Source of the DNA: Raillietiella orientalis
Lineage: Eukaryota
DNA length: 64,000 bases
Direction: 5' to 3'
NCBI GenBank assembly: GCA_036172245.1
Contig: JAYWIR010000026.1
Location: 2,790,001-2,854,000 of the forward strand
This document shows positions 4,371-60,029 of the stretch, piece by piece; within the stretch, counting starts at the first letter, position 1; every line of letters starts with the position of its first letter. The translations under genes and the position numbers were made by a program. The notes beneath the pieces are model-generated. The model worked only from the letters and a program-made list of their open reading frames with translations, was not told where the DNA came from and did not search any database.

Positions 4371-4974
4371 TATTAAAAGGCTCAAGAGGCGGAAAGCACC
4401 AGGGGAGGACGGCCTGCCCGCGGAGTTCTTCCAATGCTCCGCGGCAGAGTTGGCACCCCTGGTGCTTCAGTTGACCAGGCTGATCAGAGACGAAGGTGAC
4501 GTTCCCGCTTCGTTTCGGTCAGCCAGAGTGAGGCTCCGACACCCTTCGGCCAGCGGACTCCATAGCAGCCTTGTGCTGCCTTCACGGAATCGTCGCCGCA
4601 TGGAGCACAGCTACGGGTGGACCCCGCGATAAGCATGCCATCCAGGGCCCCGCCCAATTTCTGAGGAGGGCGTTGCGATGGCCCCTCCTGAATCCGCCAA
4701 TACAGGAAGAGCTTGCCGGCATCTTGCGCAGCATGCAACGGCCCAGCAGGTACTGTGATCCCTTCCCTTACCCTCCCATCTTTTCTTTTCCTTTGTTAAT
4801 TTTTTTTTGTTTATCCCCTGCTTTCCCTGCTGCCGTGTTGGACCGTACCGGTCTGCGAACCGGTGACCTGGCAGGCCGTGTGTTTCTTCGTGTGTGCCTG
4901 AAGCACTGGTCCAGCCACTGGTCTTTGTTAAAGTTTGTTTTTATAATAAACGCCCCGGCGAATCCCAAGTGAAA
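4371..4974 (+). mobile_element. Family B LINE fragment: RT N-terminus fused by internal deletion to the C-terminus and 3' UTR
   Basis: IKRLKRRKAPGEDGLPAEFF...SFRSARVRL is joined at ~4540 to sequence matching 58187-58627. Ends AATAAACGCCCCGGCGAATCCCAAGTGAAA. Confidence 0.85.
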
Positions 4975-7272: not shown

Positions 7273-8112
7273 CGATGGTGGTGGCCAAAGTATTTGGAAG
7301 ACATAGCGGTCGGAGCACCTCTTTTTCAGGTGGTCCGATGTATTGCAGAAGCCTGAATATTTCGTCTTCCCTATATACCATAGTCGACCGTTTCGCCGGC
7401 AACCACCAGTTTGTGGGGAAGAGAACAGCCCTCCCGGACGGTGACACATGCACCCGTAAGGCCGCATTGCATTCCAGTGTAGTCCACAAAGATACTAGGT
7501 TTGGACCACATTGCACGGACCGTCCCGTGTTGATCCAACGAGGGGCGTACGCTTTCACGACGCATGCGCGCTGTCACACCTAACAGGTGGACTACCATAC
7601 TGCTGTCCACCGTAATGGGAAGGAGTCTGCGTGTCCCCATCACCATGGAGGTTTGGAGCAGACTCTGGGCCAGATCTGCTGTTTGCAGATCACATCCACG
7701 TACTGCCATCCACTGCGGATGGTCAGAGCGCTGAGCTCCTCCTCTTTTACATTGAGAGCGCGCATCCCTTTCGAGAATAAGCGCGCGCTCTCGGAACAAT
7801 ACAGATTGCCTACCTTGTAGAGTAGTGTGAGGTAACACCCTCCTCCACGTAGGCAGATAATTCCGCCGCGGCTGCAGGCGATGGAGCCGCCACGACGGCG
7901 CTTCACGTCCACGCTGCAGCGGGGACCGATTCTGTGGGGGCGGATGCCCCAACCTTCATCATCTCTGGGGGCGACGTTGCCGCCGCCACCTGGCACTCAC
8001 TGGTGGTCGTGTCTGGCATCGCTTCCTGAGCGACCACCGAACCACCCGAAGCTTACACTCAAAGAGGGTTCCTGGCACGAGGAGCACTGAGAAAAGACGT
8101 GCGCCATGCGCG
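7273..8112 (-). mobile_element. Family B LINE 5' end and ORF1 (gag-like), decayed
   Basis: Reverse-complement match to 47310-48150 and 58643-59480 (LYKVGNLY..ESAR.FSKGMRAL, VREGCSLPHKLVV, FCNTSDHLKKRC). Confidence 0.9.
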
Positions 8113-22220: not shown

Positions 22221-24564
22221 CAGCCGACCCAAACCAGCAGACATCAACAGTCTCGAATCCTGTCGAACGATCACATCGAAATTATTCCATGGGAGACTTT
22301 TCCTTCGAAAGAATTGCCACCATTTCAAACGTGCCGAGGAAATACTTCCCGCCTTTGACTGAAAGTCCAAAAACGTAAGGCACTTGCGAGCGCTCGTCTG
22401 GGAGTTCATGACTTTTTCCGACTTGTATCAAAGAAAAAAGAAAATGCACTTCAGCTATCAGTACCCATCCACATGTAACGTGGTCGGCAAACCGTCTGAC
22501 CACTCAAGTCATTTTATTATCTGCATCATTTAACGTGACGTAAGAACAGCAAGGAATTGGGGGCACTCGAAGCACTGCCGATTCACGCAACAGCAAAAGA
22601 GGCTTAACTTACTTGGTCACACCCTTCTCCTTGGTACCTCATCCTCCAGGAAGACTCCAGCACTTGTGCGCTCTGCCAAGGCGCTTCTCGGCACCACAGT
22701 TTTCGGAATAAACTCCGCACCGGTCAGATCTAGCGCCCACTTTGCTCTGCCGTCTTCCGTTCCGTAAAGGAAAACCCGGTCGAGGAAATCGAAGAGTTCA
22801 CACGGCTGGCATCCACCTGGCAACTGACCGCGGCGTCCACCGAAAACAGTCCGCTTTCCAGAGTCACGGCCACATACACATCGTTTCTGTCACGCTGTGC
22901 TTTCTTCTACGCAGTTGGGTCTCACAAAATCCTTGCACGCTCTTCGCGCTTCGGACTGCCCGCTCGAAGAACTTCCAAGCAGCAGAACGGAGGGAGCTGA
23001 AAAGTAAGGGACACGCCAAGAACCTCTTCTAAGAGTGGAAGGAAGCACTTCGTTCATCGTTCTCAATGCAGCCGTGAGAATTTTCATATCCGCGACCACG
23101 CGTCAAGGAAGCTGCTTGCAGCGAGTGGGTGACAGAATAGATTCAGAAGAGGGAAACTCCTTCGGTTGCTAAAGAATACAAGCGCAAATCGAAAAGGAAA
23201 TACATCCATTGCCTTGGTTACGTTGCCAAAGCCTGCGGAACCGCTCTGCCATCTGTGATTCATTCTGAAAAAACGTACTGCAGGAAAGAGGGTGTAATAG
23301 ACGCCACCAGCTAAAAGATGTAAAGAAATGTACGCAGCCAGAGCTATAAGTGATAAGTGCGCATTGAATTTTCTGATGCCTCAGTGGTCATTCCGAATAC
23401 CGGCGGGCATCGGGACCTCGTGCTATGCCCCTTCCTTAAATGGTGCACAAAACAACTAGCCTGACTTCTTGTTTCGTTTTTGTTTAAAAGAAGAGTATCC
23501 GGCGACTTCGGTGTTTTCGCCCTCTGGCGAAATTTCCGTGAAGGAACGAAGTGGTGGCTCGGGACGTAGCGACACCGGTTCAAAAATCCCGCGGAGACGC
23601 AGCCACGAACCCTCCAAACATTCTTCGGCGGCTTCGAAACGGAAGACGGATGGTCGGCGAGAGGACAACGAACGCAGCGGTTGCACACTGGCAAAGAGAA
23701 CCCGATGATGAGGTCGTTGCTGGTGCAAAACGACTCAAAGAGGATATCCGAATGACGGTGTACACTTTGGGCACACCGGAAACTTAGCGCACACTTTGTC
23801 GTCATGCTCCGTGTCGCCAAAGCAAGGAGACGGGCGAGTTCCTGGAGCGAAGACACATCTGGACGTCGGACCATCCCCCGCACTAGCCGTGTTTTCCTCC
23901 TCCTTACCCTTTTCCATTTCCAGAATGGAGCGGCAGCTGAGAGGGGCTTATCAGTCACATCCAGACAGCTGTGTTTGAAGGTCCCTTTAAAGCACTACGC
24001 CGTTGCCAGGCAGAAATTGAAATGCTGCGCCAAGCAGCTTGCAGAGTAAGATGGTCACCGCTTTGGATAAATCAATTGTAAAAAGAATCATTCCGCAGTT
24101 TAAGTTCGAACGATCCGAACCCCGATGGTCTCGGAGCACTGTCCATAACTAGGAGTACTGGGACGAGCTCAGCTGCCCGAGTGGTGATTACAGACGTTCA
24201 AGTCTTTCACACATCCTTCTATAATCTTCATGATAATTAATATTCCATAAAAAATCTATACAGTAATTTATATAATAAGTATTCTTTGCAGAATAAATTC
24301 TTTGGGGAGACTGCCATGTTCGATAGTTAACGACACTGCCTCCTGGAAGCTTACAAAAAGCACGGGACGTCCCTTGGACAAAGTTTTCTTCCTGCTCTGC
24401 CCTTTCGTTAAAGTCGGAATTTCTACTGCTTGCTTCTGGTGAGACGCACGTTGGTCGTCAGTTTTTTGTATAACGCTGTCATATTCGATCGTGGGTGACT
24501 CTGTCTTTCCTCAACGGACCGTCCCCTCTGTACGGATTGCCCGGCATCCAGTGGCGTGGCACTC
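22221..24564. repeat. Right arm of the ~2.3-kb inverted duplication (partner 2036-4370)
   Basis: Reverse complement of 2036-4370, with a small indel near 24531-24539. Confidence 0.95.
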
Positions 24565-35830: not shown

Positions 35831-38800
35831 AACATCTAAAACCAGACTGCGCCACAGGTAGCTTAAGTCATCGCGTTCGAGCAAAAGGTGCGGGAACGAC
35901 TTGATCGCTCCGCCCCCAGAGCAGTTTGGAAAAACAGCTCCATCGGGAACGATGTTTCGCCCCTGATTTCAGTGGAAACTTCAGTAAGAACAGCAGCAAA
36001 TCTCGCGTTTTACTTCAAGAGGAACACGGAGCTGTCATGGCAAGCAAAGGAACCATTATCTCTCCGGTGGGCACAATGAATTAGTCGCTCCAACGAGAGA
36101 GTCCCGTCGCCCCATTGGAAGCAGTGACAGTAAGCTCCAGCTCTTTTATCCGCGGGCCGACAAGGATTGTTTTTCTCTCCTGAGAGGCTGCAAGCAAATT
36201 CACACCTCGCCGGTAGTCTAGTGTCATTGTTTGCAATGAGGACAGACGGCGTTGAAGCAAGGGGTGTGGAGGCAAGGCGATCGCATTTCTTTTTGTCATG
36301 CATGATGTCTTTCAGAGGTTGACTCAGGAGGAATGGAAGGCCTCAAAGTTCTTCCGGGCACATCCTTTCGTATTCAGCCCACGACGCAACCGACTCTTGG
36401 AGCCAAGCATTATTGCTCATAGGGTGGCAGGAGATCCAGCGTTGAGCTTCCCGTAACGAAGACAGTTGCCGCAACGGGAAGCAAATATCTTCGCTTTGTG
36501 CCCAATGTGTGGCAGAAACGACAGGATTCCTTCGCTGCCAGTGCAGCACCGAAGAATAAGTTGCGCATCAAGGCACTAAGGCGTCCACCAGAGTTTCCCT
36601 TATTGTGCCAATACTCAAAACTGCACCTGCAATTCGATTTTTTCCATCATCAGGATGCCTACACGGGTATCCTGTTCCTGCACCACCAGATCTTTGAATC
36701 TGATCCGGGACATTTCATGGTCTCACAACGCTTTGCGAAGGAGGTTGTGCGCCTAGATCTCGATCGCCTAGGAAAGTGGGCAAAAAAAAACAAAAGGTGG
36801 AGGAGAGGTGCAATGAAGCTGTTCAAAATAACCGCCTGTTCCGGCCAGACGAACTCGCTACCAAGGAATGGGCTCAGAGCACGCTCACCCTTTTGAAGGC
36901 ATCCCAACCATGCTTCTAGAAGTCGTCCAGCGGTACGCCAAGGTACTTGAAGTATCTGCCCGTGGGAATCCCCAGGTGGATCCAGTAGGACTGCCCCTCC
37001 CACGTCGTTCCCACAGAGACGACCATGCACTTCTGTTGATACTCACGCCTATTCCGCCATGGATCAGCTTGAAAAACTCTTCGAGTGAGGCCGTCGGAGT
37101 GGACATGGTCGACAGAAGGGGCACGTCATCCGCGTAGGCTGCCACGGCCTGCTTGGCTGGGCAGGAACTTGAGAGGCAAGCCAGCGTCATCTTATAAGCC
37201 TTTAGCACCATCTCAAAGAAGATGATGTACAGCTAAGGCCTGAAACTATCTTCCTACTGATTGCCCAGCCGCACCGACACGCAGTGAACAGGACAGCTGC
37301 TGAGGAAAAGGCTGGTAATCGCGTAGCGCCATCAGAAGCCTAGGTGAGCAAACAGGTTTGCTTGGAAACCGAGACGTTCCAAGAGCTCCAGAAGGAAGTT
37401 CTGGTTTCCTCAGTCGAATGCTTTGTGCAGGTCGATTGAGATTGCAAAGACCTCCGGCGTTTCTTCTTGCTGCTTATGTTTGTGCCTGTGGTCGTTACAA
37501 GCTCTCACTGCTGCTCCACCATCCAGCGGCACGCGATACGCAAATGCAGCCATGTCCGCGCATAAAAAAAGCTTGCTTCAATGGACCGCCCGGAAACAAC
37601 GTACGTTTGCTCAGGACTTATGCGGCGATCACAGATCCTTCCAGCCGCGCGACCCAAAAGTTTCGATACAATTTGTCCGAATTCACTAATGTGATCGGAC
37701 GCTAATTGTTCAGTTGGCGCAAATCTCTGCCTTGCAGCAGGATGTCCACTCTCCCTGAGCGCAGCGAAATGGGGACATTGCCTGTGTCTCGCATCAGCCA
37801 CCAGAAACGCAGCACCATTTCCGGCGCCTGCTCATCGGAAATCATGCGAATCTCCTGCTGGAGCGTCATTTAGAAGGGACGCAGGGCGTTAGCTACCGAT
37901 GGTCTCTTGCCGTCGTCATGTGGCCCGAGAAAGCTCGCCACGGAAAGACGACGAGAAGACGCAATTCCCTGTATCACAGCTGGGGAAATGAGCCGTGTTG
38001 CTCGTACCATCCGGCGAGCGGGCAGTTAGCAGCACTTAAAGTTGAAGGGCGCTGTCGCCACCGGTCTCCTCCATGCTGCACGCAGACGAGTGCTCCTTCC
38101 CAGGTTGCGTTGGGTCAGGGTCCGCGGTTGACTCGCGCTATTTCGTGGCAGGTGTTGCGCTCTTTTTTTGCTTTCGCTCGGCGTGCTTCCGCTTCCGCGC
38201 GTGCGACGAGCCGCTGATCGGTTCCGTCAGACACCGATTAGCAAATTGATTGACGCGCGAGCGACTGGCGCTTCTACTGCCGAGTTTCTTGCTCAGTATC
38301 TGCTGATTTCTCCGTGGACCTGCTTTCATTCACCTTTGACATTTACGGGCCATGGTTCCCGGTGACTGCAGCTTTCGCGTTGCACGCGATAACGGCGGTG
38401 TCTTTTGCGAGAGCTGAAGGAACTTTCGTGCGAGTTTTCTTTAGCACTGTTCCTCGCCTTACACAGGCTGAGGGACGGAGGTGTAAAGCATTCCAGGGAG
38501 TTTCTGGTTTTCTCCCCTTCTCCACAAATGTCCATCTGTCTCCACCAGACATAGCAGCGTCTGCGTCGTTTGACACAAACGCTTCCGTGTTTGTCGCTAC
38601 GTCCTCAAGAGGCGCTGTTTTGGCATTTTTGTTGGCGGGGTTGCCTCGACGGCAGTCGCGATCTTGCGCTCCGAATGCTAAGCATGAAAACGTGTGAGTG
38701 CCTGCGGCGCCATTTCGCGCGAGGGGCTGCCGCTTTTTCCTGCTTTTGCTACAGGATTGGCAGTTGCATTCTTCTTTTCAGGCATGGAAACCTCAACGAG

Positions 38801-41000: not shown

Positions 41001-41480
41001 TCTTTGCTCTTTACGGGCATAATGGCGGGAAGGTGTTACACACGCACACCAATGCGAGCAGTTCATCATGAAACAGATTTCCCTCGCGGGCAGAGGGAAA
41101 CCCACCCTCCTGGTGACGGATTGCAAGCAAGAAACCCTGGACTACGCATTTCGGTGGCCCTTGTGACTTCTTGATTACCCATGTCCCATTCCCCTCCGCT
41201 CAGTTGTATTTTCGGTGCTAGTTTTTTTATCCTGGTGCCTTCTGGACTAATTCCAAAGACTTTTGTCCCGTCCCACCTCATGTAATGTTTTTCTTTTCCT
41301 TTTTTTTGCTTGTTTTCTTCAATCCCTCACAACGCTTCAAACTCTGTTATTCCAGCCTGCGTGCCAGGAGAATTTCTCGTAATCTTTGTCGACTTGTCAG
41401 CTGGAAACTTTCTTAACTCGTTTATTTTGTATCATCTAAATGTTTATATAGAATAAACGCCCCGAAGTAACCGAGTGAGA
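41000..41480 (+). mobile_element. LINE 3' UTR and terminus
   Basis: T-rich UTR ending AATAAACGCCCCGAAGTAACCGAGTGAGAAA. Confidence 0.6.
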
Positions 41481-41499
41481 AATCTTGACAGCCTTCGAT

Positions 41500-43110
41500 G
41501 AGAGAAAGAAAGATACTGGGGGTGTGTGGTAAGCCCGTGGTCCAATCACCTTGTTCACTCTCTCTCGTGGAGATTCTACAACAGACCTGCCACTTGGCCG
41601 GCTGACTAAAGCCAAGTGCTGCCCAGGTGCTCCCTGAGGTAGGACAGAGCCGCGGTAAGGGAGGTCTTCTCAGTTCACGCACTCAAGGCGGGCTGCACGA
41701 TGATGTCCTGCAGCGAGCGGCTCTTGTAAAAGGAGTGCAGCAGTCCCTGCCAAAACTTCAGGCTCGCTTCCCCAATCTGAGACCATGTGCGAAGGCTTTC
41801 TTGCAGTGCCGTTCGCAGGCCGGCAGGAGATCCAGGTGCTCATCCTGGTCAGCATGACTACTCGCCGGAGCTCCAGTCCGCAGTCGAACAGGTACCGACG
41901 TTTGCGAAGCGCTAGGAAGGAAGACAGTACCGCGAAGACGCTGGCTCGCTGAATCAAGTATCCCGCAGCCTCAAATCAGCTAGTGCTCCACGACTTCGAC
42001 AATAGGGCAAGTATACTGAACTGTAGCTGAAGCTTCAACCGTTCCAGGAGACCAAGCCCGCCGTCCCAATGCAAAGCTCAGAAGTCCTTCAAGAGGACTC
42101 GGGTCCTCCTGTCGCACCATAGGGCGATACGAAGGAGGTCTTTCGTCCTCTTCTTGATCCTTTTTGCGGGAAGACAAACAAAAGCAGAGGTCGGAGAAGA
42201 GGATCAGCGAACGCGTTCTAAACTGCCTCCCGTTCCTGCACGAGAAACCTGCCACCATGGAAAAAGCCGGTCAACGTATCCACTCTATGAAGGCAGCTGG
42301 ACCACGCATCCTCAGAGAGATAATCTCCCAACGGTACACTGAGGTTTTTGAAGTACAGTATCGTGGAGATCCCTAAGCGGATCCTGTCCTGCTGCTCTTC
42401 AAACGCAGCTCCTACTACTGGCAACACGGAAGACTTCATCTTCTTCACCCTTTGCCCTGTTCCCCGACCTAGAAAGTTCAGGAACTTCTCGACTGCCGAA
42501 GCCGGGGTGGACATAGGAAGCAGGAGCAGAGAACCGTCCGCGTACGCTGAGACCTTAGGCGTATCGCGCAAATCGCATGACAGGGGCGCCAGAGTTCCCC
42601 TGTGTGCTCACAGCACCAATTCGGAATACGTGCTGAAGAGCAAGGGATTGATGCTGTAGCCCTACCCATTGCAGCATCGCACCGATACGCCATACACGGT
42701 ATGCCCGCCACGGAAGAACCGCTGTAAAAGACGTCGATGAGCGCTTCACGACAGCTTGAGCTCAGATAGGCCATCAAAGAGGCCGTGAAGCGCAAGCGTT
42801 TCAGGAGCTCCAGGAAGAGCCTCTAGTCGACGTAGTCGAATGCTCTATGCGAATCGAACACGACCGCGAGGGTTCCCTTTCCATTTTCCAGCAAAGGACG
42901 TTCATTAATTCCGAATGCTCATCCTGTGCTTTCCCTGATAGAGTGCGAATCAGGTGCTGGCGAGGAACAGGTTGGAATCCACGCTTCGCCCGAAAGCAGC
43001 AAATGTCTGCTCCTGGATAATGAAGCTTTGTGCAAACCGTCTCAAACGTTTTGTCCACAACTTCGCAATCAACTTGGCTTTCAGACGTGTTCTTGTTGTG
43101 CCCCGACTAC
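41500..43110 (-). mobile_element. Decayed LINE RT fragment
   Basis: QEQTFA..GRSVDSNLFLAST, SAYADG.LLLLPMSTP and QPAKWQV...EQGDWTTG. Related to 8113-10167. Confidence 0.85.
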
Positions 43111-45230: not shown

Positions 45231-47309
45231 GTTTATCACCCGGATGCCCCAAAGCGTTTATTGAAAAACTATCCGGAAACAGAATTCCCGGGCAAAGGAT
45301 ACACAAGAGACGAAGTGGGTTGGATCCCGAGACGCAGGTCGGTATACCGAAAGTCCGAAGAGGGAGGGAGGGGACCACAAATACACTACTATAAAAAATA
45401 AAAACAAAAATATGGAGGGCAGAGGATAGGGGTCTTTGGTTCGGCCATTCCTTCCTTTCAGAACCGGCGATGGATGCTGGCCATCTCTCTCCTCACGCTC
45501 TCTGGTAGATGGGCCCACACGGCAGCGGACGACATGGTCGCGCTGGATAATCCGGTGGGATGACGAAGGATGGCCAACTTCTCCAGCTCTCGGTGGGCCT
45601 GATCGATGGCGCGGGTGCAACACACGGTTGCAACGACAGCACATAAAGACAAGCCGCCTGGCGTAAAAAAGCGGCACATCAAGTCGGTCGCGGTGCCTCG
45701 CTGGTGCAGGAGAGCTGAGGCCAGCCTGCACCACAGTTCTAGGAGGGAACCGCAGTCCAGAAGCAGGTGCGGCAGCGTTTCCACTTCCCCGCACCGTTTA
45801 CAGGTTGGGGAGACAACTACCAGGAAACATGGTTCGTCCGCTGGTTGGAATGAAAACCCCAATGCACCAGCATGATGACGTCCTGCTTCCATGAAAGGGG
45901 GAACACAGAAGTGTTCAAACAAGAGGGAGGGAGCACAAGTTCTTCGGGGGGCACACTCAAGTGTTCACACCACCGAAGGAGTCCCTTCGGGATGTGGCGA
46001 TCCGTGCCGGCTTCTAACAGCTTTCAAGTCCTCCAGCCGCCAATAAGTAGTGTTGCTTTTGCAATGGTGCAGGCGACTTCCCATCTAGCCGGTTCGCAGC
46101 TGTCATCTCTTGCTCCGAGGGCTGACAGCGCGTCGGCGAACGGCGTGACGGCCAGGCGAGTCCACTTCTCCTGGCTGTTGAACACCTCATCCACCGTGCA
46201 GTACGTGGAGAGGTGAGCGCCACGGAGTTCCAGGAGGACAACATCCTGGTGCTTTGCGCAGCCATGCGAAGGTTCCTGCCACCAGGCTTAAAAGTTCGTT
46301 TGGAAGCAGGAGATCCATTCGTGGGCTGCCAGGAGCCGGTATGGGGGTTTTCGCGGGAAACCAAAGCTTCTAGTGGCGTGCTTCGTATGCGGCCTCAGCG
46401 ACAGATGTCCATCGCTGCCGGTGCAGCAAAGCAGGATCAGACGAGCGGAAGCGCACCACGGAGTGGACCAAAGATTGCCGCACACTGCCAACATCCGAAG
46501 TTGCACCTGCAGCCCGATTCTCTCCAGCGTCAGGATGCCTAAACCGGCATCCCGACGCAGAGCCGCCAAGTTTTTGAGGCGGATCCAGGACCTCGCAAAA
46601 GGTCCCTCAACAGGCTGTAAGCCTGGAGCTTGGTTGAGTAGGGGGACGGGAAAACAAAAAGGAGGAGGCGCAACAGGGGAGCAACGAAGGAGTTCCATAT
46701 CAAGGCCCGCTCCGACAGGAGGAACCTGCCATCGTGGAACGGGCTCAGAGCACTCGTAGCCTTCCGAAGGCAGTCCGACCACACTTCCACTGAGCTGATG
46801 TTCCCCAGCGGAACGCCTAGATATTGGATGGACGAAGCGGTCGGCATTTCCAGGCGGATCCAGTCGAACTGCCCCTTTCACGAAGCACCAATAGGAATTA
46901 TCACGCTCTTGCTCCAGTTTACGCTCATGCCCGCTCTTCGGCGAATGAGCTCAAAGAAATCCTCGAGACTGGACGCCAAGGTGGTCATGGGTAAAAGGAG
47001 AAGCACGACGTCAGCATACGCCGCCAAGGACGGCGTTCCTGGACAAGTAGACGGCAGGTTGGCCAGCGTCAGCCTGAACGCCCTCAGCACCAACTCAAAG
47101 AAGATGCTGAAGAGCAACGGGCTTAAGCTGTCGCCCTGCCTGATGCTCCGCCGCACCGGCACGTCGTGCACGTAACAGCCGTTGAAAGAGATGGAAATGA
47201 GCGCGTGGCGCCAGCAAGCGTGCAAATTCGCCACGAGGTGCACCGGGAGACCAAGGCGTTCCAGAGGCACCAGCAAGATACCCTGATTTGTGCAGTCGAC
47301 CGCCTTGCG
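45231..47309 (-). mobile_element. Family C LINE from RKAVD to the 3' terminus
   Basis: SIRQGDSLSPLLF, AAYADV, QYLGV and CKRCGEVETLPHLLLDC. Terminal motif at 45231-45262. Confidence 0.92.
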
Positions 47310-48669
47310 TGCTACAGGATGGACGTGTTTTCTCGGTGCTCCTCGTGCCAGGAAGTCTCCCCCAGTGCAAGCAACGTGTGGTTCCGTGGTCGATCAGGCA
47401 GCGATGCCTGACGCGAGCACCAGGGATGGCCAGGGGGTAGCGGAAACGCCGCCCTCAGAGGCGATGGAGGTGGGGGCATCCGCCCCCACAGAATCGGTTC
47501 CCGCTGCAGCGCGGGCGTGGAGCGCCGTTGTGTAGGCGCCATCGCCTGCAGCCGCGGCGGAATTGTCGGCCTATGTAGAGGAGGGGTACAACCCCTCATT
47601 GTCCTACAAGGTAGGCAATCCTTATTCTTTAGAGAGCGCGCGCGCCTTTTCGAAGATCATGCGCGCTCTCGATGTGAAAGAGGAGGAGCTCAGCGGTATG
47701 ACCATCCGCAGCGGGGGTCAGTACGTTGAGCTCATCTGCAAACATGCAGAGCTGGCGCAGCGACTGCTGAAAACCCCCGTTGTGATGGGGACGCGTAGGC
47801 TCCTCCCCACTACGGCGGACCGCAGCATGGTGGTCCACCTGTTAGGCGTAACCGCGCGAATGCGCAAAGAACAGGTTCGCGCCGCTCTGGAACAGTTCGG
47901 AACGGTCCACGCGCAGTGGACGAAAGTTAGTCCTTTCGAGGACTACAGGATGCTGCAACACGGCTCCACGGCTGCGCGCGTGACCGTTCGGGAGGGCTGC
48001 ACCCTACCCCACAAACTGGTGTTCGAAGGCGAAACCGTCGACCTCTGGTATGCGGGGAAGCCGAAATACTGTGGCTTCTGCAATACGTCGGGCCACCTCA
48101 AAAAGAGGTCTCCCAATGTGCAGTGCCAAGTATACGGAACCATAGGACACACGAGGGAGGTGTGCTCTAAAGCAGCAGTGCGGGTGGTTTCCAAGAGAAA
48201 CCTTCAAAAACGTGCCCGGCTTCTGCAGAAAAGGCTGGCGTCGAAAGCTGCCGCGAAGGCTGTGCCACCCGCGCCCAAGGCCCAGGCCGCACCAGAAACC
48301 CCGGCAAACAACGCCGAACAAGTGGAGAGAACAAGCCAGGAGCTTGGGTGGCAGGTGGCTACGGCCAAAAAATCAAAGAAGGAGAGGAGGATGAAGAAAA
48401 AGCTCGCGTACCGCCACAAAAAACAGCAGGCAAGCGAGCAAATTGAAGAATGCAGCGTTGTCGTTTATTACCCGGTTGCGCCGGGACGTTTATTAAAATA
48501 TCAACTGAGAACTGTGTTCCCAGGCAAGGGAAACAGAAAATGGGAAGTAGATTTCCCGGAACGCAGTCCGGGCACACTGAGAGTTCGGAACGGGAGGGGG
48601 TAAGACAATAAATAAATAAACTGGGTGGGAGGGCGGGGACAGGGGTATACAGTCTAACCGTTCCTATTC

Positions 48670-51600
48670 TCAGAACCGGCGGTGAATGCCGCCTATCTCC
48701 GTCCTCACTTCTGCTCTATGATGTGGCCACCCGGCAGCCATTTGCAGGTTGCAGGCTGCGGTGTCGGAGACCGATGTTGGGTCTGCTCGCATTTGCAATA
48801 CGTGGCGGGCCCTGACAATGGCGCGGACGCAGCAGATGATTGCGACGACCGCTCCAAGAGAAAGATGCCACGCGTGTAGAAGCGGCGCATCCAATCCAGT
48901 GCGGTGTGTCCAGGGTGCAGGAGCGCTGAAGACAGCCGCTGCCACAGCTCCTGCAGGGCACCGCACTCAAACAGCAAATCCGGAAGCGATTCCACCGCTC
49001 CGCATTTGGCACAGTTCGGGGACGCAACTCCCCCGGATATCAGGTGCGCCCGCTGGTTACAGTACAAACCCCAATGCACCAGCAGAAAAGCGTCCTGCTT
49101 CCACAGAAGGGGGAAGGGAGTCGCGTCCAAACACGCAGAAGGGACCCCAAGTTCATCGCAGGGCACCCCGAGGAGCTCACTCCACCGGAGAAGCCCCTTT
49201 GCAAGAATGCGAGGTGTGGCAGCGTCTGCCACTTCGCAAGTCCGCCAGCCTCCTAGCAGTCGGGTTTCGCATGCGATTTCGCAAGTGATCTCCCACCTCG
49301 CCGGCAGGTCACTGTCATCTCGCACCATCAGTGCACACAGTGCTTCGGCGACTGGCGTAGCGGCTAGGCGTGTCCACTGGTCCTGGTCTTCCAGCACCTC
49401 CCCCAATGGACAGTATGGGGAAATGTTAACGCAACGGAGTTCCAAACGGGACACATCCTGTTGCGCTGCCCAGGACGATAAGGCTTCCTGCCTCAGGGCG
49501 TTGAAGTTCGTCGGCCGGCAGGAGATCCACTCATGCTTTCCCAGAAGCGCGGTGAGCTGCTTCAAAGGGAAGCCGAATCCTCTCTGGGCGCGCTCCGTGC
49601 GCAGATGCAACGAACGTAGTCCGTCGCCACCCGTGCAGCGCCGCAGCAGCAGCAGCGCTGGAGCACACCAGGGAGTAGTCCAGAGCTGCGCACAAAGTGC
49701 CAGCATGCGGAACTGCACTAGCAGTCCGATCCGCTCCAGCGTCAGGATGCCCAATCCTGCATCCCGCCAAGGAGCCGCCAAGTCCTTCAGGCGTATCCTA
49801 GACCTCGCCGGTCCCCACAGGGCGTTACGCAACAGGCGCTGCTCCCGGCGCTTAGAAGAGTAGGGACGGGGACAAACAAAAAAGAGGGAACGGAGGAGGG
49901 GGGCAACGAAAATGTTCCACACGAAGGCCCGTTCCGACAGGAGAAACCTGCCGCCTTGGAACGGGCCCAGAGCAGTCTCGGCCTTGTGAAGGCAGTCCGA
50001 CTACGCTTCTGCTGGACAGGAGGCGCCAAAGGGAACGTCGAGGTACTTCAAGCACCTGCCCGTGGGGATCCCCAGGCGGATCCAGTAGGACTGCCCCTCC
50101 CACGTAGAGCCAACCGGTACAACGGTTGATTTCGTCCTGTGGACACTCAGGCCCGCTCTCCGACGAAAGAGCTCCAAGAAGTCTTCTAGCCTGGACGCCA
50201 AGGTGGACATGGGCAGAAGCAAGAAAAGGTCGTCATCATAGCCGGCCACGGCCGGTGTTCCCGGGCAGGAGCTTGGCAGGTTGGCCAGCGTCAGCCTGTA
50301 CGCCCTCAGCACCAACTCAAAGAAGATGCTGAAGAGCAGGGGGCTTAAGCTGTCTCCTTGCCTGGTACCCCGCCGTATGGGAACACCGTACACGTGACGC
50401 CCGCTGAAAGAGATACAGCATAACGCGTAGCGCTAGCAGGAGCGCAAGTTGGCGATGAGGTGCGTCGGAAGGCATAGATGTCCCAGAAGCTCCAGAAGGA
50501 GGTCCTGGTTTACGCTGTCGAACGCTTTGCACAGATCGACGGCGACCGCTAAGGCTCCCGGCGTTCCATCTTGTCTTGAACATCGCCGCTTTCCTTTGCC
50601 AGCGGCGATTTCGGCTGCCTGGCTCTGCTGCGCCACGCGCTGCTGCAACTCGAACCATGTTCGCGCGAAGAAGAGATTCGCGTCCATGGACCGCACCGGA
50701 ACAGCATACGTCTGCTCCGGACTTACCAAGGACTCTGCGATTCTCCCCAGGCGCGCGACCCATAGCCTGGAGTACAACTTGACGTCCGAATTCACCAATG
50801 TGATCGGACGCCAGTTGCTGAGGTGGCGCAAATCATCGCCTTTTGGCAGGAGCCGCACCTTTGCTGAGCGGAAAGAAGCGGGAACATCTGCCGTCTCACG
50901 CATCAGTGAGGAAAGGCTTGGCACCAGGGGGACGAGCTCCGCCGCGAAGCACTGAAAGAACTCCGCGTGCAGGCCATCCTCCTCAGGCGCCTTACGCCTC
51001 TCCAGGCCCGCTATGGGAAAAGATACTTCTTCCGCCGTGAAGGGCCAATCCAATCTGGCGCGTTCCTCCTCGTCGATAGCAGGGTTGCCTGTCGGAAGAA
51101 GCAGCTCGGAGAGACTGCGTTCCGTGGGCTCCTCCGCGTACAACGAGGAGTCGTAGCGCTTGACTACGCTGTGTACTTCGGCTGCAGCCGAGCATTCGTG
51201 GCCAGCGTCATCGAGCAGACAAGCCGCTCCAGACTGCCAAACCTGGCGCTCGGCCCTGGCCTTATACTCCGCCAGACGCCGGACGTCCGGGCATCGTGAA
51301 AAGGTACGCGCCTGCAGATAGGATCTGCTGTTGGCGACACCCTCCCGGAAGCCGCGGGGAAGCAGGTGCAAGGAAAACCGGCAGCAGAACTCGCGGACCG
51401 ATCTTTTCAGATCGTCCCAGTCCTCGAGTTCACAGATGGCGAAGCCCCGGAGGTGTTGGCGGAGATGCTCCGCCGCCTCCGAATTGCAAAGCCAGTCGGC
51501 CGGCAATCTCCAGACATTCATCGGAGGCCCTTTGCCAGGCGGGAGGAGCTCGAAATCCAGTCTAGGATGATCCGAAATCGCGGACAGCAGGCGTCCTCTC

Positions 51601-52232
51601 CGACCTACTCGTGAGAGCAGGTGTTCATCGAGGAACGCATGGTCCGGCGATCTCTCCATCCCGGGCTCACCAGCAAGCAAGTTTTGCACGCGCACGGACG
51701 CGCATACCTCGCTCACCAGTTGCTTCTCCCTCAAGCGGCATCTCTCCTCTGTTAGCAGGTGGACGTTGAAGTCTCCTGCAAGGAGGTGCGCCACGTTAGG
51801 GCCGGAGTCAGCGAGCCAGCGGCTGCGCAGGCCACCCAGGAATGCAAGTCGCTGGGCGCAATGCCGGCCTCCCCTCGGCGCGTAGATGTTCGTAACGACC
51901 AGGTCGATCGATTCGGACCACTTGAGGACAAGTTGGCCCACACGACCTTCCTCGTCGAAACAAACGTTCCGCACCGCCTCCGCCACCCTGCCTCGGACGA
52001 GGAACGCGACTCCGCACGTGTGCGCGGTGCCTTGCCGCCAGTGTAGCGCCCCGCCCGCGCGCTCTTCCAGATCCGATGCCTGCCTTACGGAAATGCTATG
52101 TATCTCCTGCAGCAGCACCAGATCGAACGCGCGCAAAGCGTTGGCTCCCGTCCGCCTTTTGTCAGCATCACGTAGCCCGTTGACATTCCAACAGGCCACG
52201 CTGACGCGACGAGCGGACGCGAGTCCACGCAT
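48670..52232 (-). pseudogene. Family A ORF2 (APE endonuclease, reverse transcriptase, C-terminal Cys/His motif), with few in-frame stops/frameshifts
   Basis: WNVNGL, LQEIH, NIYAP, GDFN, SDH; NWRPITLVNSDVK, VDLCKAFDSV, GTRQGDSLSP, YDDD, KYL; CAKCGAVESLPDLLFEC. Confidence 0.93.
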
Positions 52233-54175
52233 CACTGCTGCGGACATGACGGCGTGCTCCTCGCCCCGTCCGGCGAGAAGTCAGCTGGTAGGAGAGCGGA
52301 TTGGGAAGCGGAATCGCTCCCGTTCGCCGCCACATCGCGCCCAGCTGAGTCCTGGGAGCCGAGGATCATCGCCTCGGTCTCCGTGCAGGAGCCGGAACCG
52401 CCTCCGGCAACAGGCTCGTGCTTTCGCACTTTAGCCCGGCGCGCTACCGGCTTACCCCGGGATGCGCGCTCCATTTGTTTGCACTCGGACTCCACCTCGG
52501 AGTCCGAGTGCCTGGCGCGAGACTGGCGTTTTGCCAGTCTCTTTTTGTTTCGGCAGGTGGAGGCTTGCCCTGCCCGCGCGGGGGTCGTCGCAGTTGCCAA
52601 CGCAGCTTCCGGAGCTTTGGCTTCCGCAGCCGCTCTCTCGCGCGAAGCGACGGAGACAGAGCACGCAGCCGTAGTGCGTACCTGGGTACGCACCTTCTTC
52701 GGCGTGCTTCTCTTTTGCCTCCCACCTACTTTAAGGATGGGGAATATTGAAGGGTCAACCTTCTTCTTCCCCTTTGTGGGCGTCCTGGAGACTCGAGTCC
52801 AGCCCGCGTCGGGGACGCCCTCCTGGCAGGCCGACGCCTCCCTCAATTGTTTGGCCGGAGATGCCGGCTCACGTTTCGCGCTCGCGGCGGGAGACGGCTC
52901 CGTCCCCGTTACGCACTGCACCTGCTCCTTAGCCGATGCGGGCGAAACGGCGGTCATTGCCGTCGTCCCGCGAGGCGCTATTGCAGCCTTCGCTGCTCGT
53001 GCCTTCGGCGTGGAAGACGTGATCTCCACCGCCGTAGGAGGAGACTGCCGTTCAGAGGCATCTCCGAGGGTACCCGCGCACGGTTTCCCGTGTGCTGCGC
53101 TGGACGCGCAAGCGGACGCGGACGGTTCAGCAGCCTTGATTGAGTGTGTGCCCGCACTCTTAGGCTGCTTCGAAGGGGGCGATTTGCCCCCAGGGCGACG
53201 TGGCGTCTTTCCCATCTGCGCGGTTCTCTGGGATGGTGGCTTTCCTGAAGCAACCGCGCCCTTTTTCGCAGGACCGCCACTCGAAGATGATCCGCCCTTT
53301 GCGCTTGATTTCTACCGTGGCACAACGGGGGATCTTTTCGGCGCGGACGGGGTAGATTGTTGGCGGCCTTTCGCCTGCCGCTTCCTCTTCAGCTCGGCGC
53401 ACTCTTTGATGGAGTGGCCGAGCTGTTTACAATAGCGGCAGTTGCGTGAAGGGCACGTCCACGGACGGTGGCCCTCGGCACCGCAAATGCCACAAGCCGG
53501 TCGCTAACCGGCAAATTTAAGGTGGACGATCGCATCGCCCACCTGCAAGTGCGGAGGCATTTGCCTCCTATCCTCCATGGTGACACGCGCCATGGCAAGT
53601 CCGCTGTGGAGAGATGCAATCCTTTTGATCGGATTGTCTGCTCTCCACAGCGCGTGAACCGTGGCGAATGCACTTATGGCAGCAACGAGCACACGATCGG
53701 GCGTGTCCACCTGGACGGCGGATAATCGGACCACGAACGACTGGTTCATGGCCGACGGGACGACCTCCTTCCCGAGGATATTTAGCGGGGTGCGGAGAAG
53801 GCGCTGGACTAGGGATGCCTCCTTGCAGTGCACCTCCCAGTGTCCGAGCGCGTTAACCTGCATGACGGCCAGGAGGTCGTCCTGTCGGACCCCGACGCGC
53901 AAAAGCTCGTCCCACAAATTCTCTCCGACCCCGTCGGAGATCGCAGCACTCACCGGATAGCAGAGCGCAGGCTTGTAGCCATGGGCTGCATATGCCTGCA
54001 GCTCCGCTGCGTCGGGCGGTGCTCTGTTGGCTGCCGCCGCCTTGACGACGGCGGCGAAGCTTCTCGCCGGTGGCGAGACACAAGAATCAGAGGCGGACCG
54101 GACATCTGGAGTAGAGTCTCCACTGCCAGTAGCAGCCGCTACATCCAACTTTTGCTGCAGGGGCTTCGTGGACAT
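52232..54175 (-). pseudogene. Family A ORF1 (gag-like, two CCHC knuckles), with stop/frameshift
   Basis: RSFAAVV, TVHALWR, CGICGAEGHRPWTC and CRYCKQLGHSIKEC, followed by a long A/S/P/K-rich tail. Confidence 0.85.
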
Positions 54176-57100
54176 CCCAGTGGACGCACTCGGGCACACC
54201 ACACACAAGAAGACGGAAAGGAATCACGCTCGTGGAGCAACACAGAACACGTCCGTGCGCCGTCGTAGTGGAGCGTATTCCCGACCGCTGCGAAAAAGAA
54301 TTCACCGCTACCGACGACAACCCCTCTGTTGACTTCGTCAACAGCGAGGGGAGCGAGCCGGCGGCGGCGTCCGTCATCGACATCACCATCGATGACGTAG
54401 CCTTCGCGGGAGCCGCGGAGGAGCTGGCAGCCTCGTTGCAGCCAGAACCCTCCAAGGCTGGCAAGAAGGCCGTAAGGCGCTTGGCCTCCCATCAGGAGTC
54501 CCCCACTACCGACCCCGAGGTGGAGGCCGGAAGCGGAGACTCCGTTTCCACGGCACCGCGCAAGAAGGCTGGACGTAAGTGCACAAAGCCAAGGAAGCTC
54601 GTCTCCCCCGTCGAAGGGAAGGAGATGGCTTCCGCAAGCGAGGGTGCCATGAGCGTGGTAAACTCTCGGGACCCGTCGCCCGAGAGACTCCCACGCGCCG
54701 ACACGGAAGGGATGGAAAGGGTGGAGGCCGAACAGGTGCCTCAGGTGCCTGAGAAGGCCGAAACTTCCATGGACCTTTCGACTGCCTCGCAACAGGAGGG
54801 CTCCCTCACACATTAATCTTCCCAGCAGTAATGCCGGGAATCTCCTCCCGCCGTCGTCTGCGCATCGCCGTTTGGAACGTAAACAACATGACAGACGCCG
54901 GCAGGTGAGGAGACATGGCCGCCCTTCTGAAGTCCTACGAACTTGCGCTGCTGTAGGAGATCCACGTGATCTCTGCAAAACAAGCGCAAGAGATCGAACG
55001 GATCTCCGGAGGGCGGCTGTGGTACAGGTGTGGGAGAGCGAAAAGTTGCGGTGTCCCCTACCTGCTTCGGCCAGCCGTCGAGGCCGCGGCTTGAAACGTG
55101 CGGTTCGACGATCACGGTCTTTTCAGCCAGCTGACTCTCAGGTGGTCCGACTCGATCGATCTGATCGTCACGAACGTGTACGCACCGAGCGGCGCGGACC
55201 TGATGACCAGCAAGGCGATGAAAGAGTTCTTCCTTGCCCTCCGGCGAGACTGGCTGACCGAAGCAAGCGTGCGGAATGCCCATCTGGTTGCAGGCGATTG
55301 CAACGTTTGCCTGAAAGCAGATGGGCAGAATCCCGAGCGTGACCTGGTCAACGAGGTGTGCATGGCAGTGCACACCTGTAATTTGTTGGCCAGTGCACCG
55401 GGGATGGAAGACAGCATTGACCACGTGTTTCTTGACGAGCACCTGTGCTCTCGCGTGGGCAGGCGCGGCAAGTTACCGTGCGAGCTGTCCGACCATCGCC
55501 CGCTAGTCCTCGAGATCCATCTGCGCGACAGGGGCCTGCCCTCGTCAGCGTGGCGTCTCCCAGGGGACTGGCTGAAGCTCCCGGATGCGGCTGAACATCT
55601 CCGCACGTTCATACAGAGCTTCAGGCTGCGGACACTCCAGGATTGGGACCGCTTCAAGCGTTCCGTCAGGAAGTTCTGCGACCAGTTCCCTCTGCGCCGC
55701 CTGCCTACGGGTTTGGGACCGGGGTCCGTAACTAACGAGCCAAACTGCAGGCCCGTCGTTACCCCAGGACCCCCGATATCCGCAGGCTGGCGGAATACAA
55801 AGCGGGAGCCAAGAGGGAAGCCTGGCAGTCCGGATCGGCCAGCTTACTGGACGATCAGGGCCAGGAGCACTCGGCACCTACCCAAATCCGCGGCCTGCTG
55901 CGGAGTTACTACTCCTCCCTGTATGCCAGGGCACCTTCGGAGAGGAACGTCTCACGACTCCTGCTTTCGGAAGGCGCTCCAACGATCGGGGAGGAGCAGA
56001 GAAAGACCCTCGACGAGCCTTTCACGATGGACGAGATCCTCTCGGCCATCGGAAAGCTCAAGAGGCGAAAGGCTTCAAAGGAGGACGGCCTGCCCGTGGA
56101 GTTTTATCAAACCTTCGCGGCTGAGCTTACCCCACTGGTATAGCAACTCACCTTGCTGATACGCGAAACATGGGACGTTCCCGCCTCGTTTCGTTCGGCA
56201 AAGGTGCGGCTCCTCGCTAATGGAGGAGATCTGAGGAGCATGAACAACTGGCGTCTCATCACAATAGTGAATGCGGACGCCAAGTTGCAAGCAAAGGTTT
56301 GGACAGAGCGTCTGGGACGGGTGGCTAACGCCTTCATCAGCCCGGAACAGACATATGCTGTTGCCGGGCGAAGCATGGAGGCGAACCTGTTCCACGCTTT
56401 TACCTGGCTAGAGCTCCAACATGAAAGGAGCTTGGTGCGCAGCCGGAATTAAGGTGCGTGCGCCGGCAAGGGGTTGGATGGTCGGGTGAAGGAGGGAGCC
56501 CTTGCGGTCGCAATCGACTTGCGGAAGGCATTCGATTGCGTCGACCAGAATCTCCTTCTGGAGCTTCTGGAACGCTTGGGCTTCCTCGCCTCATTAGTGG
56601 CCTATCTGCGCTCCTGCTGGTGCAACGAGCTCATCAACGTCACTTGCAGCGGGCAGACCGTGCACGGCGTGCCGGTGGGGCGTGGGATCCGGCAGGGAGA
56701 CAGCCTGAGCCCCTTGCTCTTCATTTCCTACTTTGAGTTGGTACTGAGAGCGTACAGGGGAACTCTGTGGCACCTGCCTCACGACTGTGCCGGTACGCCG
56801 GCCGTTTCAGCGTACGCGGACCACCTTCTGCTGCTGCTCCCCATGTCCACCCCGGCTTCGGCGGTCGAGGAGTTTTTCGACCTGCTGCATCGGGGAACCG
56901 AACTTACGGTGAACAGGGCGAAGTCGTCCGTGATTCCAGTTGGTGCGGCGTGGGAAGGGCAGCAGGGCTGGGTCAGTTTGGGGATCCCCACGGTGAGGTA
57001 CTTCAAGTACCTTGGTGTGCCGTTGAGGGACTACTCCCCTGCAAAAGCGTGGTCCGGCTGCCTCCAAAAAGTAGAGACGGCGATCGGCCCGTTCCGAGGC

Positions 57101-58642
57101 GGCAGGTTTTTCCTGCCTGAACGGGACGCGATTTGGAACACGTTCGCGGCTCCTCTTCTCCGCCCCCTGCATTCTGTTTGCCCCCCCACAGAGAGAATTA
57201 AGAAGCGGACAAAGGACCTTCTCCGTATCGCCATTTGGGGCAACGGGAGGGCCCGAGTCCGCTTAAAGGATTTGTGCGCTCCTCGTCGGGACGGTGGTCT
57301 GGGCCTCCTGACGCTGGAGCTGCTGGAGCTTCAGCTCCAGTTCCGTATGTCGGCAGTTGTTCCAGAGTTGTGGTGCACCTGTTGGTGCGTCCCTGCACGT
57401 CTCCTTTTCCAGCAAGCCACCGGCAAGACGGGACTGAAGTCGTTTGTTGCACTCCGTCGCCGCGTCAACCGATGCGGACTCCAGCTACGGATGGTGGATG
57501 CGCTGTATCGGAAAAACTCAGGATTGCTCACCTGTCTCCCTTTGAACGGTAGTGCCTGGTTGCAGGAAACCGTTCGAACGTTGGGACAGTTCGGCATGCA
57601 ACGCTCCCAACAGGAACGAAGGTTCCTGTTGGGGGGTTACAGTAGTTACACGCTCCGCGAGATCCTGGAGGATCCAATGAAGAGAGCGTGGGCAGGAAGA
57701 ACGCCCCTCGCTCTGAACTGCCCTCCCTGATGACAGATCTGGACAGCGATGTTGCGGCGAAGTGGGAGGCTTCAGTTGCAATCTCCGGAAAGGAGTAGAA
57801 GATAGGAGAGTGGAAGACGAGCCAGTTAACAGACGCTGCGTCCCCGAGTACGCCTCCCAATGGACTTCTGCGCTGGGGCGCGCTGCTCGATGTTCCCATT
57901 GAACATCTGGAGTGGTCCCCGGTGCTCATGAACTCTTCCGCCCTCCCCTTAAAATGGCAGGAGTCGGCTCTCCTGTTGCAGCACTGGGGACTCCCCTGCA
58001 ACGCCCGCCGACAACACTGGACCTGGGGAGCGGTGGATTCCAATTGCGTCAGGTGTGGGGAACGGGAGTCCCTCCCCCACCTGATTGCGGATTGTGCTGC
58101 CCTTCGGCCCCTTTAGTTTCGCTTTGCCGCCGCCATCGGAATCCCCTGCGGCAAACCCAGGGACGCACTGAAAGCCCTCTTCGTTGCCGACGCCCTTCGG
58201 CCAGCGGCCTCATTAGCAGCTTTGTGCTGCCTACGCGGGGTCGTCACCGCTTGGAGCAAGGCTACGTGAGGACAACGTGACCAGGGTGCCATCCAGCCAG
58301 CCTCCCAGTTCCTAAGGAGGGCGTCCCGATGGCCCCACCTGGATCCAGGAAAACAGAAGGAGCTTGTCGGCATCCTGCAAAGGATGCAACGGCCCCACCA
58401 GCAACTGTGATCCCTTCCCTTACCCTCCCAACTTTTCTTTTCTTTTTTGTTTTGTGTTTTGTTTTTCCCCCTTCCCCCTGCTGCCGTGGTGAATCGTACC
58501 GGTCAGCGAACCGGTGACCCGGTAGGCTCTGTGTTTCTTCGTGCGTGGCTGGAGCAATGTTCCAGCCACTCTACGTCTTTGTAAATGTTTGTTTTATAAT
58601 AAACGCCCTAACGAAATCCGGGTGAAAATCGAACGCCTTGTG

Positions 58643-59995
58643 CGCTCTAGGGCGGACGTGTTTTCTCGTTGCTCCTCGTGCCAGCAAGTCTCCCCCAGTG
58701 CAAGTGTCGTGTGGTTCGGTGGTTGATCAGGCAGCGATGCCTGACGCGAGCACCAGGGATGGCCAGGGGGCAGCGGCAACGCCGCCCCCAGGGGCGATGG
58801 AGGTGGGGGCATCCGCCCCCACAGAATCGGTCCCCGCTGCAGCGCGGGCGTGGAGCGCCGTTGTGTCGGCGCCATCGCCTGCAGCCGCGGCGGAATTGTC
58901 GGCCTATGTAGAGGAGGAGTACAACCCCTCATTGTTCTACAAGGTAGGCAATTTATATTCTTTAGAGAGCGCGCGCGCCTTCTCGAAGGGCATGCGCGCT
59001 CTCGATGTGAAAGAGGAGGAGCCCAGCGCTATGACCATACGCATTGGGGGTCAGTACATTGAGGTCATCTGCAAACAAGCAGAGCTGGCCCAGCGACTGC
59101 TGAAAACCTTCGTGGTGATGGGGACACTCAGGCTCCTCCTCATTACGGCGGGCCGCAGCATGGTGGTCCACCTATTAAACGTCAACGCGCGCATGCGAAA
59201 AGAACAGGTTCGCGCAAGCGTTGGAAGAATGTGGAACGGTCCACGCGCAGTGGTCGAAGGTCAGTCCTTCTGAGGACTACACGGGGCTGCAGCACGGCCA
59301 CGCGGCTGCACGCGTGACCGTTCGGGAGGGCTGCACTCTTCCCCACAAACTGGTGGTCGATGGCGAAACCGTCGACCTATGGTATGTAGAGAATCCGAAA
59401 TACTGCGGCTTCTGCAATACATCGGACCACATGAAAAAGAGGTGTCTTAACGTGCAGTGCCAAGTATGCGGCACAATGGGTCACACGAGGGAGGTGTGCC
59501 CAAAAGCACCAGTGCGGGTGGTTTCCAAGAGAAACCTTAAAAAACGCTCCCAGTTACTGCAAAAAAGGCTGGCAGCGAAAGCTGGTGCGAAGGCTATGCC
59601 ACTCGCGCCTAAGACCGTGGCTGCAACTGTGTCCTTGGCGACCAACACCGAAAAAGTAGAGGCATTTGGCCAGGAGACTGGGTGGCAAGAGGCAACGTCC
59701 AAATAATCAGAGTAGAGGAGGATGGAGAAAAAAATTGTCGACCAACAGAAGAAGAAAGAGCAGGGTACCGCAATAAAGAGTGAGTGCATGTCGTCGTCGA
59801 ACGCGTTCCCGATGTTGCCGAACGTTCCCAGAAAGAACTCGCCGATACTGACGACCTCTCCTCTGTTGACTCTGTCAACAGCGAGGGGAGCTAGCCGGTG
59901 ACGGCGTCCGTCATCGACACCACCATCGATGACGTAGCCTTCGCGCGAGCGGCGGAGGAGGTGGCCGCCTCGTTGCAGCCAGCCTCCTCCAGGCC
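58643..59995 (+). mobile_element. Second tandem family B copy (B2): 5' UTR and ORF1, truncated
   Basis: Near-identical to 47310-48460. Contains CGFCNTSDHMKKRC and CQVCGTMGHTREVC. Confidence 0.92.
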
Positions 59996-60029
59996 AGTTG
60001 GAGGAAGTGTTTTTCCTTCACTCCTCAAA

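Follow-up and report, generated by a model that had tools for sequence, protein, structure and literature searches.

A LINE family of Raillietiella orientalis that probably targets the reverse transcriptase motif A codons of other LINEs

For target-specific long interspersed nuclear elements (LINEs), multicopy host RNA genes, microsatellites, telomeres and some transposons serve as safe places to insert. R1, an element with an apurinic-type endonuclease (APE), produces a 14-bp target-site duplication (TSD). Passages of two studies describe how APE LINEs of the Tx1 clade target U2, U5 and 5S genes, microsatellites and other transposons, and document tandem copies sandwiching a TSD for target-specific APE LINEs (PMC4494074, PMC4640811). 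Those of the first study place Tx1L in the piggyBac-type Tx1D, Tx1-Mar in Mariner-N4_AMi, Tx1-9_AMi in Harbinger, and Tx1-8_Crp and Tx1-4_AMi in retrotransposons with long terminal repeats (LTRs), and state that precise priming benefits from 3' sequence that is read through or co-transcribed (PMC4494074). Zepp and ZeppL, L1-type LINEs of green algae, are described in the relevant passages as nesting into existing copies (PMC8226300), and Zepp as ending in poly(A) (PMC3747384). Here we describe a 64-kb stretch of Raillietiella orientalis DNA (contig JAYWIR010000026.1, positions 2,790,001 to 2,854,000, hereafter the window), where the ends of one LINE family, called B, lie at a single 14-nt sequence belonging to the reverse transcriptase (RT) genes of related LINEs. 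Family B is probably a target-specific, or at least strongly site-preferring, LINE that targets RT motif A of other LINEs and generates a 14-bp TSD.

Related LINEs form two nests in the window (1-10.2 kb and 34.4-64 kb), and the DNA between them is mostly unique. All counts of B termini, junctions and controls given here refer to this single window. Termini were called by profiles of the family B ends combined with self-alignment, and the following copies and parts of copies were delimited.

47310-58628, plus strand: B1, with a minus-strand LINE A nested inside at 48468-54285
47310-48467, plus strand: 5' part of B1, comprising the 5' untranslated region (UTR) and most of open reading frame (ORF) 1 (self-alignment, tblastn, end profiles)
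48468-54285, minus strand: nested full-length LINE A (ORF1, APE, RT) in ORF1 of B1, not part of B (Pfam Exo_endo_phos and RVT_1, junctions)
54286-58628, plus strand: 3' part of B1, comprising the end of ORF1, APE at about 54786-55724, RT at 56453-57727 and the 3' UTR (Pfam, tblastn, blastn)
58643-59990, plus strand: 5' part of B2; LINE D, in the same orientation, cuts it at about 59991
4536-4975, plus strand: B4, the last 440 nt of B, 5'-truncated (nhmmer score 468)
7316-8112, minus strand: Bm, the 5' 800 nt of a B copy, 78.6% identical to B1 (nhmmer score 451)

All three B 5' ends in the window (47310 and 58643 on the plus strand, 8112 on the minus strand) and both 3' ends (4975 and 58628, plus strand) adjoin the same 14-nt sequence. 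End-profile scores were 451-475 for the 5' ends and 468-475 for the 3' ends, with anything else at 230 or below. An initial annotation, made by eye from the letters, had placed family B junctions on one site; self-alignment and end profiles bear this out at five of five termini, and the four 14-nt strings that it had listed are present.

47296-47309, plus strand: left site copy (TSD) of B1, TCGACCGCCTTGCG; the minus strand reads R-K-A-V-D in frame with host C
58629-58642, plus strand: middle site copy, between the 3' end of B1 and the 5' end of B2, TCGAACGCCTTGTG; 12 of 14 positions match the left copy
4976-4989, plus strand: site copy after the 3' end of B4, TCAAGCGCCTTATG; the minus strand reads H-K-A-L-D, with AIAVDL of host H1 in frame upstream
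8113-8126, plus strand: site copy beside the 5' end of Bm, CATAAGGCGGTCGG; the plus strand reads H-K-A-V-G in frame with host H2

The opposite strand of the site reads (H/R)-K-A-x-(D/G), the codons of RT motif A, and both this assignment and the translated flanks agree with the initial annotation. At all three junctions with a host LINE, B is antisense to the host RT and the host frame stays in register through the site. The neighbouring RT homology detected by tblastn stops at the motif (46578-47309 minus, 8116-8298 plus and 4975-5304 minus). It is the C-terminal half of the host RT that shares its frame with the upstream site copies (47296 and 8113), and the N-terminal half that shares its frame with the downstream copy (4976). 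B1 is bracketed by two copies of the site in the manner of a TSD and B2 starts directly after the second, as had been proposed. Occupied sites resemble each other at 11-12 of 14 positions. When the window was scanned with a degenerate site pattern allowing at most one mismatch, six matches were found against 0.52 expected, a number reached in none of 100 shuffles, so that the enrichment for which a check had been suggested is seen within the window; four of the six adjoin B termini. The recurrence of the site at B ends is not due to chance. The same target and the same orientation, as in a target-specific LINE, are found at five of five termini and three of three host junctions, respectively, and the best reading of the 14-nt sequence is that it represents the TSD of B.

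The LINEs on the far side of these junctions were delimited as follows.

45233-47295, minus strand: host C, 3' UTR and C-terminal half of the RT, ending at motif A (tblastn, 46578-47309 minus to residues 24-267 of the B1 RT)
4990-5761, minus strand: host H1, ORF2 upstream of motif A, with the 3' side lost exactly at the motif (tblastn; N-terminal part of Pfam RVT_1)
8127-10166, plus strand: host H2, RT from motif A to the 3' end, with a 3' flank of unique AT-rich DNA

Host C is 70% identical to LINE A over 45595-47308 (blastn), has its 3' tail at 45233 and shows 73.5% identity to the A lineage, its closest, against 66.7% to B; the N-terminal half of C is expected past the B array, beyond the window. 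For host H2 the B lineage is the closest, at 72.0% against 64.4% for A. Segments of H1 (4975-5304, 5283-5582 and 5594-5761, minus strand) align by tblastn to residues 324-588 of the A ORF2, and H1 is 67-68% identical to the RT of B1 itself, to A and to element E, its alignment to element I extending over 49 nt only. To our knowledge, copies made by target-primed reverse transcription (TPRT) are never 3'-truncated, as reverse transcription starts at the 3' end. With everything 3' of the motif lost, H1 is a host that was interrupted, as opposed to a LINE that came to lie there afterwards. When B and one copy of the site were removed in a script, H1 and H2 joined into a single open RT frame across motif A. 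The initial annotation took B to disrupt its hosts on insertion, but these may have been dead by then.

How many integration events these junctions represent was judged from sequence divergence. Between the two host-flanked 5' junctions, 780 nt of B are 78.6% identical (608/774), while over 700 nt of host flank the identity is only 63.8% (419/657), a difference for which arithmetic on these counts gives z of about 6. Because a duplicated unit would show equal divergence throughout, yet the host flanks are far more diverged than B, the two 5' junctions are evidently separate insertions into two different LINE lineages, and it is for these two events only that the flanks are more diverged than the element. 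These alignments display the anatomy of the junctions, their orientation, the duplication of the site and the two host lineages directly.

These features are accommodated by a mechanism in which B would integrate by TPRT into 5'-TCRAVCGCCTTRYG-3' (in the orientation of B), where TCRAVCGCCTTRYG corresponds, in antisense, to the codons that encode (H/R)-K-A-x-D of RT motif A in sibling LINE families. In the host RT gene, a nick would fall on the sense strand just after ...TTCGA, and the freed 3' OH there would prime cDNA synthesis on the 3' end of the B RNA. A second nick 14 bp away would then give rise to the 14-bp TSD around each insertion, and re-use of the duplicated site could generate head-to-tail arrays such as B1-site-B2. 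Being conserved in protein sequence across LINE families, motif A would offer a target that is present in many copies and lies outside host genes. The order of the nicks is deduced here from junction geometry, and the specificity could reside in the APE domain, in pairing of a read-through 3' tail, or in both. Staggered nicks of 12-14 bp are normal for the group, as the LINE A inside B1 has its own TSD of about 12-13 nt and the corresponding empty site is visible in B2 (about 59795-59810).

Without the nested A, B measures about 5.5 kb and consists of a 5' UTR, an ORF1 without a Pfam match, APE, RT and a 3' UTR that terminates in AATAAACGCC, followed by about 20 nt and then GTGAAAA, with no poly(A). 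Pfam identifies RVT_1 on the B1 RT, and tblastn detects APE homology at 54786-55724. The sister element A matches Pfam Exo_endo_phos and RVT_1, that is, an apurinic-type endonuclease followed by an RT. The closest solved structure is human L1 ORF2p (E 1e-24), and among PDB structures the APE domains match the human L1 endonuclease, with the R1 and TRAS endonucleases absent from the matches. A protein search returned one close relative, P0001, at 65% identity; other matches did not exceed 31%, the nearest named proteins being plant L1-like RTs, and a look-up in the Atlas gave generic APE/RT clusters. The order of domains in ORF2, an N-terminal apurinic-type endonuclease and then RT, places B among APE-type LINEs of the L1 group. 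The LINE structure is apparent from the absence of LTRs and terminal inverted repeats, a defined 3' tail, 5'-truncated copies and flanking TSDs: B1 and B4 have a 3' tail in common, B4 is a 440-nt 5'-truncated copy, and a 14-nt direct repeat brackets B1. Family B is thus best explained, on its domains and structure, as an APE-type, L1-like non-LTR retrotransposon of about 5.5 kb with ORF1 and an APE-RT ORF2.

The copies are old. Self-alignment gave 86.6% identity between B1 and B2 (47296-48401 and 58629-59732), 80.0% between Bm and B2 (7316-8128 and 59444-58627) and 80.0-80.3% between B4 and the 3' end of B1 (4536-4986 and 58187-58639); in a comparison of B next to the junctions, B1 and B2 are 89.5% identical and either is about 79% identical to Bm. 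ORF2 of B1 is broken into at least three pieces and B1 is therefore dead.

Related elements other than B provided controls. The 3' ends of all five abut other sequences, none of them motif A (profiles and flank inspection).

62645, minus strand: 3' end of B3
10166, plus strand: 3' end of H2
14324, minus strand: 3' end
26045, minus strand: 3' end
41482, plus strand: 3' end of F
41437-41500, plus strand: F, a short B-like 3' end (to 41482), with its flank TCTTGACAGCCTTCGATG in the 3' part of ORF2 of E (minus strand)

The flank of F, at about 41481-41497, had been put forward as a fifth and weaker case of the motif-A junction. It was rejected: element E has its own motif A (42836-42849) about 1.3 kb upstream of the flank, which belongs to the 3' part of E's ORF2; the resemblance of the flank to the B site is partial, at 11 of 14 positions with a 2-nt indel. 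The hexamer GGAGAT that follows the 3' ends of both H2 and B3 was considered as a second common target and was also rejected, the H2 flank being unique AT-rich DNA with no LINE homology.

Motif A is present without an insertion in four further elements.

56522-56535, plus strand: unoccupied motif A of B1, CGGAAGGCATTCGA
50518-50531, minus strand: unoccupied motif A of A, TGCAAAGCGTTCGA in the sense direction
37414-37427, minus strand: unoccupied motif A of element I, CACAAAGCATTCGA in the sense direction
42836-42849, minus strand: unoccupied motif A of element E, CATAGAGCATTCGA in the sense direction

All four occupied sites read AAGGCG, and the unoccupied motifs of B1, A, I and E read AAGGCA, AAAGCG, AAAGCA and AGAGCA. 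This difference is suggestive of a sequence requirement, within a set of few, non-independent sites, and G-to-A decay could equally be the source of the changes in the empty sites.

Several observations weigh against the proposal that B is target-specific, or against the number of times it can be said to have used its target. The evidence comes from one 64-kb window. Four motif-A sites in it are empty, two of the six pattern matches (50983-50996 and 54471-54484) are unoccupied, and the B-like 3' end F and the 73%-related element B3 lie at other sequences; specificity may accordingly amount to a preference, or be limited to a narrow subfamily. With ORF2 of B1 broken, there is no intact B endonuclease to argue from, and the age of the copies (79-90% identical) makes later rearrangement plausible. 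The sites at 4976 and 8113 both begin CAT AAG GCG, and H1 and H2 fit together, so that these two junctions may mark either end of a single insertion that underwent subsequent inversion of its left part, with LINE C2 (5806-7354) inserted between them. B1 and B2, for their part, could reflect two successive insertions or a local tandem duplication. Since 4976 and 8113 may be one insertion and B1/B2 may be a duplication, we would count two or three independent integrations, not four or five. Of the repeated targeting claimed initially, the use of two different host lineages therefore stands and the larger number of events does not.

A rival to target specificity is that only one or two ancestral insertions occurred, and that segmental duplication, inversion and unequal crossing-over in a LINE-rich, probably heterochromatic region then spread their junctions. 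The region is indeed heavily rearranged and nested, a single insertion followed by inversion could account for the 4976 and 8113 junctions, the identity of B1 to B2 (89.5%) exceeds that of either to Bm (about 79%), in keeping with a local duplication, and a junction of A in B ORF1 that recurs at about 103 and 48468 indicates that composite pieces recur here. A duplicated unit, however, predicts equal divergence of element and flank, and the host flanks of the two 5' junctions (63.8%, against 78.6% for B) derive from different RT lineages. A single ancestral insertion, which the initial annotation had named as the finding that would undo its proposal, is excluded by these values for the two 5' junctions; it survives for 4976 and 8113 as possibly one event and for B1/B2 as a possible duplication. 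Moreover, even two independent insertions in the same orientation on the same 14 nt would be unexpected by chance, and we regard spread by duplication without any specificity of B as quite unlikely. It is very improbable that C and H2 are instead 5'-truncated LINEs which inserted beside B and were joined at motif A by microhomology with the 14 nt flanking B. Microhomology at LINE 5' junctions is established, and both C and H2 keep their 3' ends and have no sequence upstream of motif A within the window; yet H1 is the reverse case, with the N-terminal half kept and the 3' side gone, which a truncated insertion cannot give. Other LINEs would also need to have targeted the flank of B repeatedly, and the site follows B 3' ends as well.

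A variant of target specificity, as opposed to an alternative to it, is that recognition is mainly a matter of base pairing, the 14-nt tail of a read-through B transcript annealing to the nicked RT sense strand. For R1 and R2, pairing of read-through 3' sequence with the target has been proposed. In B, poly(A) is absent and the site follows each 3' end; the primer strand, as deduced from junction geometry, would be fully complementary to the read-through tail; and the likeness of occupied sites at 11-12 of 14 positions is what template-derived 3' site copies would give. Co-transcription with the target is also said, in a passage of PMC4494074, to strengthen targeting. The host-derived upstream site copies (47296 and 8113), on the other hand, fit the same pattern, and sister families with the same 3' tail architecture have other targets. 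That pairing is the principal source of specificity seems rather unlikely.

Further copies were sought in public data. A search of public sequencing runs returned one DNA run, X1, which shares 0.06 of the sampled words, and no RNA run was among the matches. On 46800-59400, 449 contigs of X1 align at 80% identity or more (20 at 99% or more, 58 at 95-99%, 123 at 90-95% and 248 below 90%), indicating that the organism of X1 carries many related copies. Among the matches listed, which cover 6 of the 305 loose ends and 8 of the 475 pieces, none lies at a B terminus. A metagenome scan for the conserved B 5' motif gave no matches, and one with the B RT protein gave 37 pattern matches, none of which was confirmed. 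Pfam matched none of 62 ORFs from 9.7-34.4 kb.

The surroundings of the B copies show additional features. Left of B4, a 160-nt plus-strand RT fragment (4377-4537) is a 76% inverted copy of 5309-5476, a part of host H1 to the right of B4; the fragment may derive from a B-like copy with an internal deletion or be a trace of the proposed inversion. Element G, 2.3 kb long, is present at 2036-4370 and 22221-24564 in opposite orientation; at 97.9% identity, its copies are much younger than the LINEs. Neither inverted nor direct terminal repeats are present, and the 216-aa ORF of G is without a Pfam match. One G copy sits between the elements A' and B4.

All LINE families of the window have a 3' tail composed of AATAAACGYC, a CCCGG-loop-CCGGG hairpin and a short A run, without poly(A), and this shared tail ends at 4975, 10166, 41482 and 58628 on the plus strand and at about 103, 45233, 48468 and 62645 on the minus strand. 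Such a tail recalls 'stringent' 3' end recognition. Structure prediction gives the hairpin in A and H2, with z-scores not significant against shuffles; in the B copies it is decayed. Two 5' ends of family D (43070-43085 and 59985-60000) carry the 5' start motif of B and A (similar to GGACGTGTT..), at different targets: D2 abuts the NTDAK..AKLW region of E's RT in antisense, and D lies inside B2 in sense. Nested pairs are mostly antisense (B/C, B/H, A/B twice, C/D2, B3/D and F/E); the same-orientation pairs are D in B2 and C2 next to Bm, and these are few, interdependent events.

Family A shows a recurrent junction of its own. Two of its minus-strand copies, ending 3' at about 103 and 48468, meet B ORF1 at one and the same position, with flanks CGACCACGCTGCATTC and CGACAACGCTGCATTC. 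The copies involved are those at 24-2035 and 48392-54285, and B2 at about 59795-59810 represents the empty site. The flanks of the pair are identical at 58 of 76 positions, against 84% for the body of A, and the junction is due either to a second site-specific family or to a duplicated composite. Tentatively, these LINEs could form a guild of siblings that parasitise one another at fixed coding sites, B at motif-A codons and A at the one B ORF1 site, seen twice. A victim could not change the motif-A target at the protein level, and synonymous codons may let B itself escape, GCA standing in its own site where all occupied sites have GCG. Whether as hyperparasitism or as competition, such a guild would leave LINE-only nests as a by-product; we consider it possible but doubtful.

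If B does target motif A, it would define a new class of target, a sequence maintained by the enzymatic constraint of the victim itself, and would place retrotransposon families in direct conflict. It could also explain the build-up of LINE-only nests, such as the centromere-like clusters of some algae, and studies of endonuclease specificity would have a practical interest in an APE endonuclease with a 14-bp target. A full-text search, conducted outside Repbase Reports, most subscription journals and the supplementary target alignments of PMC4494074, found no report of a LINE targeting the RT-coding motif of another LINE. The style of site-specific insertion is already known, and the novelty lies in the target, the catalytic RT-motif codons of sibling LINEs.

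Among described systems, the likeness is to Tx1 elements, as far as the passages cited above portray them. In both cases an APE LINE occupies a fixed short target in another mobile element, in fixed orientation, with a TSD of about 14-16 bp and tandems sandwiching the TSD. This likeness is one of description, and the targets differ: those of Tx1 elements are a non-autonomous DNA transposon or an LTR element, whereas B appears to use the coding sequence of an RT motif in sibling LINEs of at least two lineages. B also resembles Zepp, within what the cited passages relate, in being a LINE of the L1 group that piles up by nested insertion into LINE copies and so contributes to LINE-only clusters. 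Zepp, in contrast, targets its own copies and builds arrays of 3' ends, while B uses one defined 14-nt site in other families. Neither the poly(A) end nor the self-nesting of Zepp is seen in B, which ends in GTGAAAA, has left its own motif A in B1 empty and has hosts from other lineages. With R1 and R2, finally, B would share strict sequence-specific insertion into a conserved multicopy sequence; the target of R1 and R2 is the host rRNA gene, and that of B is another retrotransposon.

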